Below, one piece after another: positions 21,833 through 23,854 of a stretch of DNA of 64,000 nucleotides. Both the position numbers and the translations under genes were made by a program. Under the pieces are notes generated by a model that saw only the letters and a program-made list of their open reading frames with translations, was not told the DNA's origin and did no database searches. The DNA is from Pseudomonadota bacterium (lineage in GTDB: Bacteria > Bdellovibrionota > Bacteriovoracia > Bacteriovoracales > Bacteriovoracaceae), in the NCBI GenBank assembly GCA_027487685.1, contig JAIYDC010000133.1:73325-137324 (forward strand). Direction: 5' to 3'. The first letter of the stretch is position 1; each line of letters starts with the position of its first letter.

Positions 21833-23854
21833 ATGAGTCGATTGAATTTCAAACTTGAGGCCACGGCATCGGGATCACGGGCACGAGCCGCCACGTTCAC
21901 CACTCTTCACGGAGAAGTGCAGACTCCGATTTTCATGCCGGTCGGTACCCAGGCCACCGTGAAAAATCAGACTGTGGAGTCTCTCAAAACCGCAGGCTCG
22001 AACGTCCTTCTCGCCAACACCTACCACCTACTTCTTCGCCCAGGCCCGGAGGTCATGCGGAAGTTCGGTGGCATCCACAAGTTCATGAACTGGGATCGTC
22101 CCGTTCTCACGGACTCCGGAGGCTTTCAAATTTTCTCCCTCTCCCATTCTCGAGAGATGAATGAAAAAGGGGCACGGTTCCTGAGCTACGTCGACAATCG
22201 TCCGATCCTCCTCACTCCTGAGCTCTCCATCGACATGCAAAAGGCGATCAATAGCGACATCATGATGGTCCTCGATCAGTGTATCGAGTCCAATGCCACC
22301 CGCAAGGATGCGAAAGCTGCTATGGAACTGACCCACCGCTGGGCGAAAAGAAGTCTTGAGGCCCGCGGGGAAACTCTTCAATCCATGTTCGGGATTGTTC
22401 AAGGCGCCTGTTTTGAAGACCTGAGGAAGCAAAGTGCTGACGTTTTGATTAATCTCCAAGTCAACGGTGAAGGCTTTGATGGTCTTGCGATCGGGGGCCT
22501 TGCTGTCGGTGAAACGAAATCCGAGCGGGAGGACTTCACGGCCATCACAACAGAGATGCTACCAGCTAACCTCCCGCGCTATCTCATGGGAGTTGGAACT
22601 CCCATCGACATCCTCGAAGCAGTTCACCGAGGGGTCGACATGTTCGACTGCATCCTGCCGAACCAGTATGGCCAGAGAGGAGTTGCGTTCACGAGTCTGG
22701 GGAATTTTCAGATGAGGCGCTCGGTCTATAAGTTCTCTGAGGAGAAGCTCGATCCAGGTTGCGACTGCCTGACATGCACAAACTACTCCCGCGCGTACCT
22801 CCATCATCTCATAAAAACTGATGAACCTCTCGGTTGGCACCTACTATCCCTTCATAACATCACTTTCTACCACCGGTTCATGGGTGAGATGAGAATGAGT
22901 ATTCTCGGCGGAAACTTCCTTGATTTCTACAATCGGAAGCGAAAAGAACTCGTCATGACCGACCAGGAGAATCCCCCAAGCCCCATGAAGGCTTCAACTC
23001 CATATAAAAAAGATAAACGCTTGCAGCTTGGAGATTACGAAGTCGTTGTTTCTCGTCGCGGATTTTCCAGCATACGCCAGAAGAGCTCCGGCGAGGTCAT
23101 GCATTCAGTGAATCCGCCCCAGGAAGAAGCCCATAACCTTTATGTGATGCCAGCTCGTATCGATGAAAGGCTCAAAGAGGTTGAGGAAATCGTCATCTGG
23201 GACGTGGGCCTTGGCGCCGCACACAATTCGATGGCGGTTATCCATGAGTTTGCGAACAAGGACTTAAGCGGAAAGATCAGAATCGTTAGTTTTGAAAACG
23301 ACACCGACCCGCTGAAGCTTGCTTTGCGAAACGCTCCGGCCTTTCCGCACCTTCATCACGCAGCTCCGCATGAGCTCATCAAGCTCAACAAGTGGGTCTC
23401 TCCTAAGGGAAACATTGCATGGGACCTTATCCAAGGTGATTTCTCTCACACGTTCCCAGGAGCAATGAAGCCCCACGTGATCTTCTACGATCCGTTCTCT
23501 ATCCAAACAAACGTCGAACTCTGGAGCGATGAGACCTTCGCTAGAATCTTTGAACACTGCCACGGGAATAAAGTTCAGCTCCTCAACTATTCAGCTTCCA
23601 CGGCGGTTCGGGCAGCGCTACTTTCAGTTGGCTTCACAGTTGGCTATGGGCCATCAAGCGGTCCGAAAAGCACGACAACAGTTGCGTATAACGATTCCTC
23701 ACTCGCTCACAAACTCGAAACGACCTTGCTCGGTGAAGAGTGGCTTATCCGATGGGAGAAAAGTGATGTGAAGTCCGCTCGGGGTTTGAGTAATTCGGAT
23801 GAGAAAGAATTTGAAGAGAAGATACGTAAGCATTCTCAATTTCAACGAACCTAA
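21833..23854 (+). CDS. tgt: tRNA-guanine(34) transglycosylase fused to C-terminal MnmC(MnmD)-like methyltransferase
   Basis: [45 protein letters not shown]; C-terminal [37 protein letters not shown]. Confidence 0.9.

Follow-up and report, generated by a model that had tools for sequence, protein, structure and literature searches.

What does a bacterium that holds an ordinary transfer RNA (tRNA)-guanine transglycosylase (TGT; the bacterial enzyme is Tgt) do with a further one that carries a methyltransferase on its C-terminal side? The question was raised by a gene at positions 21833-23854 (+) of a 64,000-nucleotide stretch of contig JAIYDC010000133.1 (assembly GCA_027487685.1, forward strand positions 73,325 to 137,324) from a member of the Bacteriovoracaceae, phylum Bdellovibrionota. 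This whole stretch is called the window. Queuosine synthesis in bacteria is assumed to rely on a single Tgt that recognises a single motif, U33-G34-U35, in four tRNAs, and on a single pathway, which leads from preQ1 (7-aminomethyl-7-deazaguanine) via epoxyqueuosine (oQ) to queuosine (Q). The gene in the window encoded a fusion protein whose TGT half belonged to a separate Tgt clade, here named type II. Both halves appeared catalytically competent. The helix that carries two arginines in canonical Tgt was remodelled throughout the clade, and the clade was always accompanied by a canonical Tgt in the genomes examined. A tentative reading is that the protein makes a second 7-deazaguanine mark in RNA.

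Anatomy of the fusion protein

The gene was a single uninterrupted open reading frame of 673 amino acids, as seen from the frame call and its translation. It opened with ATG at 21833 and closed with a stop codon at 23852-23854. An in-frame TTG was also present at 21821, and ATG 21833 fits as the start because homologues open with MSRLNF. A preliminary description of this DNA had named a complete Tgt and an MnmC-type domain in one gene, and the reading frame, the Pfam domains and the residue alignment confirmed this. The features were as follows.

21833-23854, + strand: whole gene, type-II Tgt with MnmC2-like methyltransferase; 673 amino acids plus stop, both Pfam domains in one frame
21833-22951, + strand: TGT domain of the type-II clade, residues 1-373 (PF01702, TIGR00430)
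22112-22114, + strand: Asp94, equivalent to Asp102 of Zymomonas mobilis Tgt (LTDSGGFQ), catalytic acid/base; aligned to 1ozm and invariant in 36 fusions
22646-22681, + strand: motif D272-G283 with the nucleophile (Asp280 equivalent) kept; R286 replaced by Q, R289 by Q and N290 by R
22760-22855, + strand: zinc site C310, C312, C315 and H341; invariant columns, aligned to CxCxxC...H of Z. mobilis
22952-23014, + strand: linker, residues ~374-394, low-confidence and flexible; predicted local distance difference test (pLDDT) below 50 at residues 385-391
23015-23851, + strand: MnmC2/DUF752-like N-methyltransferase dependent on S-adenosylmethionine (SAM), with a conserved C-terminal tail, residues 395-673 (PF05430; NF033855)
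23201-23227, + strand: motif I, D457-VGLGAAH-N465, SAM binding; G459, G461 and N465 invariant
23489-23500, + strand: motif IV, D553-P-F555-S556, DXF catalytic motif of N-methyltransferases; D553 and F555 invariant

The Pfam TGT family (PF01702) matched residues 16-371 with an E-value of 1.6e-138. The NCBIfam Tgt equivalog TIGR00430 was passed with 433.9 bits at a cut-off of 306.75. Identity to Z. mobilis Tgt was ~44%, and co-resident canonical Tgts showed ~44-45%. The AlphaFold2 (AF2) model agreed with Z. mobilis TGT at a template modelling (TM) score of 0.93 and a root-mean-square deviation of 2.1. Asp102 and Asp280 are the catalytic residues of the Z. mobilis enzyme and Asp156 binds the substrate. 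Their counterparts were D94, D272 and D148, respectively, all invariant in the 36 fusions. In the same alignment the preQ1-type pocket was kept (C158, Q203, G230-L231-A232-V233-G234-E235, M260), and the pocket motifs LDQC, GGLAVGE, GIVQG and YLMGVG were all conserved. The equivalents of the dimer-interface residues F92, Y330, H333 and E339, read from the alignments, were also conserved. The DpdA model NF041059 gave no match to the fusion at E<=0.01, and dpd-like neighbours were not found. Fold, catalytic Asp residues, pocket, zinc site and dimer contacts were thus shared with bacterial Tgt of Z. mobilis and Escherichia coli (TIGR00430; PDB 1Q2R, 1EFZ). As far as residues can establish it, the TGT half is catalytically intact and has the preQ1 pocket of canonical bacterial enzymes.

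The motif that follows the nucleophile was altered. Its tail read PNQYGQRG in the window protein, which lacked the canonical Arg286/Arg289 feature (Z. mobilis numbering). The loss of two Arg from an RNA-contact motif had already been noticed in the preliminary description; it was upheld by the Z. mobilis alignment and proved to be a clade-wide signature.

In the second half, Methyltransf_30 (PF05430) matched residues 507-620 (E 2e-13) with 50.8 bits, above the gathering score of 22. The NCBIfam MnmC2 model NF033855 gave 72.7-75.1 bits, below its threshold of 136. Modelled alone, this half reached an AF2 pLDDT of 95. The top PDB matches were 3vyw (Aquifex MnmC2), 3ps9, 2qy6, 3awi and 3sgl (TMq 0.55-0.70) and included the methyltransferase domains of MnmC from E. 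coli and Yersinia. Motif I matched the (GX)GXGXN of DUF752, and the role of DXF in DUF752 N-methyltransferases has been described (PMC3527978). The residues defined in that study (G459/G461/N465, E488, D536, D553/F555 and Y586) were invariant or nearly so; the third Gly of motif I was Ala in the fused domain. The class-I fold, motif I, the Glu of motif II, the Asp of motif III, DXF and the Tyr of motif VI were therefore common to the fused domain and MnmC2/DUF752 (Aquifex aeolicus 3VYW; N-terminal domain of E. coli MnmC), as was the predicted chemistry, in which a primary aminomethyl group carried by a base is methylated. In contrast to these enzymes, the fused domain had only 17-25% identity to solved structures, scored below the equivalog-domain cut-off, read DPF instead of DAF or DGF in motif IV, carried an extra conserved C-terminal tail of ~50 amino acids and was partnered with Tgt, not with the MnmC1 oxidase.

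An exhaustive search with the domain returned 160 representatives at E<=1e-30. They comprised fused and stand-alone (~270-330 amino acids) forms, all below the MnmC2 cut-off and all sharing the conserved C-terminal tail. By its motifs and models the methyltransferase half is an intact, MnmC2-type amine N-methyltransferase (predicted), which in most type-II proteins is joined to the TGT half through a flexible linker. Linker length differed among homologues in the alignment. A same-genus genome (G190) encoded a stand-alone methyltransferase of the fusion type with 278 amino acids (L059:14972-15808, +), ~5 kb downstream of its fusion. It was 54% identical to the fused domain and nested among the Bdellovibrionota fusion domains, near the fusions of the genus. 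A stand-alone copy of this type was absent from the window's own genome.

The type-II clade and its companions

Thirty fusions were compared with 22 other Tgts of the same phylum. All 30 read DCI(L/I)P(N/S/T)(Q/S/A)x(G/A)QRG, whereas the co-resident canonical Tgts all read DCV(L/M)PTRNARNG. Positions that separated the two groups at >=90% included G69A, V282I, R289Q and N290R, and R286 was never Arg in the fusions but Q, S or A. Searches with the TGT half recovered further proteins with 66-80% identity, namely stand-alone forms of 372-412 amino acids and a group of ~523 amino acids, all bearing the type-II motif. A broader pattern, DCI[IL]P[STN]x[LY][AG][QK]RG, was common to fusions of six or more phyla and to the stand-alone type-II forms. 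Both Arg286 and Arg289 were replaced in all fusions read (30+80) and in the stand-alone type-II forms read; both were retained in 33 of 33 canonical or sole Tgts. Remodelling of the helix that bears them is established across the type-II clade at the level of alignments. Two other candidate markers were discarded. K264 did not discriminate as an RNA-contact change, with Thr also present in some canonical Tgts of the phylum, and DQC (versus DEC) was no type-II signature, several canonical Tgts likewise having DQC.

In phylogenetic trees the TGT domains of the fusions formed one clade with a Shimodaira-Hasegawa-like approximate likelihood ratio test (SH-aLRT) value of 100 and a stem of >1 change per site. 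A 74-row tree placed all type-II forms in one clade (SH-aLRT 100, stem 1.13) with very short internal branches across phyla. Stand-alone and truncated forms were scattered among the fused ones, which indicates that the methyltransferase half was lost repeatedly and the TGT half kept. The ~523-residue forms consisted of a type-II TGT and a truncated methyltransferase remnant, which no longer had the SAM-site residues GxG, His and Asn and stopped before motifs III and IV. This lineage was represented by metagenomic proteins (P0272-P0287) on contigs of up to 128 kb, and its consistent length in more than 10 clusters suggests a stable derived form rather than an assembly artefact. In four Bdellovibrionota genomes a stand-alone type-II Tgt was present as a third copy. 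A split form, with a methyltransferase gene adjoining the type-II Tgt, was considered and rejected, as no MnmC2-like gene lay within 7 kb of the stand-alone type-II Tgt in these four genomes. A literature search found no paper on the type-II clade.

The fusion proved common in databases. More than 100 full-length clusters with both domains and 60-89% identity were present in the protein database, all annotated just as 'tRNA guanosine(34) transglycosylase Tgt'. Among the 301 Bdellovibrionota genomes sampled, ~77 carried the fusion. Within the family of the window it was found in this genus alone, and it was common in at least five other families. An alignment scan of species-representative genomes with the C-terminal domain gave at least 591 loci. 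The architecture across phyla was read from the best 80 of these, which were nearly all TGT fusions with the same motif in frames of ~670-750 amino acids (a few longer). They originated from Verrucomicrobiota (Opitutae), Binatia, Thermodesulfobacteriota, Riflebacteria, Lentisphaerales, Leptospira ilyithenensis and Avigastranaerophilus. TGT-MnmC2 fusions (COG0343/PF01702) are mentioned in one sentence of 'Alternate routes to mnm5s2U synthesis in Gram-positive bacteria' (bioRxiv 10.1101/2023.12.21.572861), without analysis of the TGT half, paralogy, altered motif, product or function. As far as sequence databases can tell, the architecture is widespread and catalogued, and it is functionally uncharacterised.

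All of the ~77 fusion-bearing Bdellovibrionota genomes held at least two TGT genes. The five distant genomes inspected each had the fusion, a canonical Tgt of ~375-410 amino acids and QueA; QueF was above the cut-off in three of the five. Some genomes had two type-II copies and a canonical Tgt. Conversely, a type-II enzyme as the only Tgt was never seen in the genomes examined. In a sample of 14 genomes with a sole Tgt, picked for the lowest hidden Markov model scores, all 14 enzymes were canonical (DCV.P[TS]RN[AG]R[NH]G). Unlike bacterial Tgt of the known kind, type II thus formed a separate long-stem clade with Arg286/Arg289 replaced, Asn290 changed to Arg, and G69A and V282I, was never the sole copy and usually carried a C-terminal methyltransferase.

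The window's genome (assembly of 3.79 Mb, 97.7% complete, 3.7% contaminated) followed this pattern. The preliminary description had proposed to look for a second tgt and for mnmC or mnmEG; two more TGT genes, a separate MnmC2-like gene and mnmG were found. The three TGT genes were the fusion, a canonical Tgt and a third paralogue. The canonical Tgt (370 amino acids, DCVLPTRNARNG) was encoded on contig C22, followed by yajC and secD and with queA one gene upstream. The fusion was not in a queA/yajC/secDF context, and the canonical place in the queuosine pathway, with the order queA-x-tgt-yajC-secD, was held by the gene on C22. The genome also contained queF, a queG-like gene and two QueC homologues. 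The separate MnmC2-like gene encoded 258 amino acids and scored 116.4 bits against NF033855, versus 75 for the fused domain, to which it was only 27% identical. With an ordinary Tgt and a separate MnmC2-like gene present, each half of the fusion is an additional copy here. The presence of MnmG means that the substrate of MnmC2 can be produced. The genome held twelve G34 tRNA species, and none of the twelve was singled out as a target.

The third paralogue lay outside the window (C117:15082-16242; locus L002:1405-2568, +) and had 387 amino acids, with DCIIPTKFGRGG and GGVSVGE. Within the family, 23 of 24 genomes sampled encoded it, and it also occurred in another family of the phylum. Its zinc-binding CxCxxC was replaced by NLKDYVN(T/S)N in the genus and in three or more further genera. 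The catalytic Asp residues were nevertheless kept, and identity remained at 77-83%. A Tgt without the structural zinc site appears to be under selection here. A separate observation concerned two f4 genomes (L164, L165), in which the sole Tgts had VLDVC, where others had DEC or DQC, and GGFSVGE, with Phe at Leu231, on a long branch. This pocket may reflect a changed base preference, e.g. salvage of another 7-deazaguanine.

Proposed reaction and competing explanations

MnmC2 transfers a methyl group to the 5-aminomethyl group of nm5(s2)U34. The CH2-NH2 on C5 of U34, its substrate, and that on C7 of preQ1 occupy an equivalent major-groove position. The reading preferred here, with somewhat less than even confidence, is that preQ1 enters RNA at a non-canonical site and then receives a methyl group on its aminomethyl nitrogen, both steps being taken in sequence on one nucleotide. 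The TGT half would exchange guanine for preQ1 in a loop of RNA, the anticodon loop of a tRNA being the most likely, and the sequence 3' of the target guanine would depart from canonical U33-G34-U35. The tethered methyltransferase would then move a methyl group from SAM onto the exocyclic aminomethyl nitrogen of preQ1. The product would be 7-(methylamino)methyl-7-deazaguanosine. This secondary amine would no longer be a substrate of QueA, so that the modified position would not enter the queuosine pathway. Where the methyltransferase half has been lost, the position would remain preQ1 or proceed to Q. The more general proposal, that type II as a clade writes a second 7-deazaguanine mark outside U33-G34-U35, on a non-GUN tRNA or another RNA site, and that the fused domain turns it into N-methyl-preQ1, is put forward with greater reserve.

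Several observations speak for the proposed sequence of insertion and methylation. The TGT half is competent by residues and fold, and the methyltransferase half by its invariant motifs and MnmC2-like fold. The long-stem clade and the positions that set it apart from canonical Tgts speak for a distinct specificity. Type II never replaced the ordinary Tgt; the methyltransferase half was likewise an extra copy in Bdellovibrionota. N-methyl-preQ1 is natural in phage DNA, where it is made by the unrelated DpdM (PMC10516641), and E. coli TGT has been described as highly promiscuous towards the bases that it inserts (PMC13416341). The proposed base, 7-(methylamino)methyl-7-deazaguanine, is the product of DpdM, a phage dPreQ1 N-methyltransferase of DUF3109 (PMC10516641), which differs in that it has an unrelated metal-binding fold, acts on DNA after DpdA2 and is not fused to a transglycosylase. 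No neighbour was shared by the fusion loci (21 loci of 18-20 kb from ten families), and a conserved gene neighbourhood was therefore ruled out. A self-sufficient two-step enzyme would be expected to stand alone in this way. The preliminary description had suggested a two-function enzyme or a methylase acting on the inserted base, with possibly changed tRNA specificity. Its anatomical part stood and its interpretation was supported in part; the suspicion of altered RNA specificity was strengthened, because the Arg-less motif is a clade signature and the clade always occurs beside a canonical Tgt.

Other observations weigh against this proposal. To our knowledge, no RNA nucleoside of this kind and no experiment on the fusion family has been reported. 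Arg286 and Arg289 are said to read U35, and a literature search found no text stating such contacts. The orientation of the two domains was not confidently predicted, the whole-chain AF2 model having a predicted TM score (pTM) of 0.57 although both domains were confident. The halves were not obligately coupled, with stand-alone type-II and degenerate-remnant forms scattered through the clade, and stand-alone relatives of the methyltransferase occurred in genomes with a single canonical Tgt. Outside Bdellovibrionota the fusion was the only Methyltransf_30 gene in ~27 of 32 genomes, and MnmG was present in 39 of 40 fusion-bearing genomes. MnmG makes the normal substrate of MnmC2. With MnmG and no other Methyltransf_30 gene present, the methyltransferase half could simply be the MnmC2 of these organisms. 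The situation varied among families of Bdellovibrionota. Fusion-bearing genomes of this genus and of families f14, f23 and f4 also had at least one stand-alone Methyltransf_30 gene. In family f15 strong Methyltransf_30 matches lay on other contigs in frames of ~630-780 amino acids, the length of classical bifunctional MnmC (judged by length, not by an oxidase domain), and in some f6 genomes the fusion was the only Methyltransf_30 gene. As a separate observation, two full-length MnmG genes, each above the cut-off, lay ~4-6 kb apart in three fusion-bearing genomes of Riflebacteria and Avigastranaerophilus (G303:C10:55922-62064, G305:C70:154818-160517, G326:C47:565-6229).

The chief rival takes the two activities as independent. 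The fusion would then comprise a second Tgt, isofunctional or condition-specific, acting on G34 of GUN tRNAs, and an ordinary MnmC2 converting nm5(s2)U34 to mnm5(s2)U34 in the tRNAs for Lys, Glu and Gln. Their union would reflect merely shared binding of the anticodon loop or co-regulation. The pattern of sole Methyltransf_30 genes in most carrier Verrucomicrobiota, Binatia, Riflebacteria and similar lineages, with MnmG nearly always present, fits this explanation, as do the retention of every MnmC2 catalytic motif and the evolutionary uncoupling of the halves. The bioRxiv paper cited above also treats the architecture as an MnmC2 fusion. However, independent activities leave unexplained why only the Arg-less type II, and never a canonical Tgt, bears the methyltransferase domain, why type II never replaced canonical Tgt and why the fused copy is strongly conserved in organisms with their own MnmC or MnmC2. 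A score of 75 bits, well under the 136-bit equivalog cut-off of MnmC2, also argues against an ordinary MnmC2. This explanation is regarded as possible but rather doubtful.

Two lesser rivals are both improbable. Type II may be a partner subunit of canonical Tgt in a heterodimer like QTRT1/QTRT2, which would bring the methyltransferase to the canonical substrates or tune their modification, with no RNA target peculiar to type II. The strict co-occurrence with canonical Tgt and the conserved dimer-interface equivalents are consistent with this, and the eukaryotic pair of a catalytic subunit and an accessory paralogue (PDB entries) provides a precedent for two Tgt paralogues in one organism. QTRT2, however, lost catalysis, whereas type II keeps all catalytic and base-pocket residues invariant, and the eukaryotic pair has no methyltransferase. 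Gene linkage to the canonical tgt was absent, and the genomes with two type-II copies in addition to the canonical enzyme also argue against a heterodimer. The target may instead be something other than position 34 of tRNA, such as ribosomal RNA, transfer-messenger RNA, messenger RNA, a different position in tRNA, or, as with DpdA, DNA, with the methyltransferase acting on the base inserted there. Here the remodelled RNA-contact helix is in favour, and the fold is known to accept other targets, as in archaeal TGT and in DpdA (PMC10516641 for DpdA). Against it stand the score as a bacterial Tgt equivalog, the failure of the DpdA model to match, the kinship of the methyltransferase with enzymes of the tRNA anticodon loop and the absence of restriction or dpd-type genes among the neighbours in the window and in the compared loci.

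Gene neighbourhood and significance

The immediate upstream neighbour of the fusion gene was truA.

20977-21792, + strand: truA (PF01416), adjoining the fusion gene on its upstream side

The upstream position of truA had been reported correctly in the preliminary description. The gap to the fusion gene was 40 nucleotides and held no terminator-like site, and the two genes are probably co-transcribed. A TetR-family regulator gene, truA and the fusion gene followed each other on the same strand (the first two at window positions 20402-21792, +). These three genes may form one transcription unit in the genus, since the sole promoter-like site (20368-20396) lay upstream of the TetR gene. Adjacency of truA to the fusion was restricted to loci of the same genus.

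A queC had also been named for the window. A QueC-family gene was indeed present at 49554-50285 (-), with 185 bits, but it was not linked to the fusion. It overlapped the end of a gene for a nicotinamide adenine dinucleotide (NAD)-dependent epimerase and was surrounded by glycosyltransferase and short-chain dehydrogenase/reductase genes of a polysaccharide cluster. It was the weaker of the two QueC homologues; the better copy (227 bits) was on contig C136. The product of the gene in the window resembles an ATP-dependent, QueC-like enzyme that was taken into a glycan pathway and not into queuosine synthesis. It was rejected as a pathway partner of the fusion owing to its place in the glycan cluster.

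New in this analysis are the delimitation of type II as a Tgt clade defined by a signature motif, the finding that it strictly coexists with canonical Tgt and the repeated loss of the methyltransferase half. If the fusion comprises only a Tgt and an MnmC2, it supplies the MnmC2 activity that was otherwise missing from Verrucomicrobiota and further phyla, and a second domain and a paralogy hidden by the present annotation have still been brought to light. If the proposed insertion and methylation of preQ1 are true, the deazaguanine pathway of many bacterial phyla would gain both a novel target specificity and a novel end product, a ribonucleoside undescribed in RNA. A conserved and intact second Tgt clade beside the normal enzyme in many phyla would alter the picture of a single bacterial Tgt. 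The remodelled helix together with the tethered aminomethyl N-methyltransferase points to an extra deazaguanine mark and possibly to a new RNA nucleoside.

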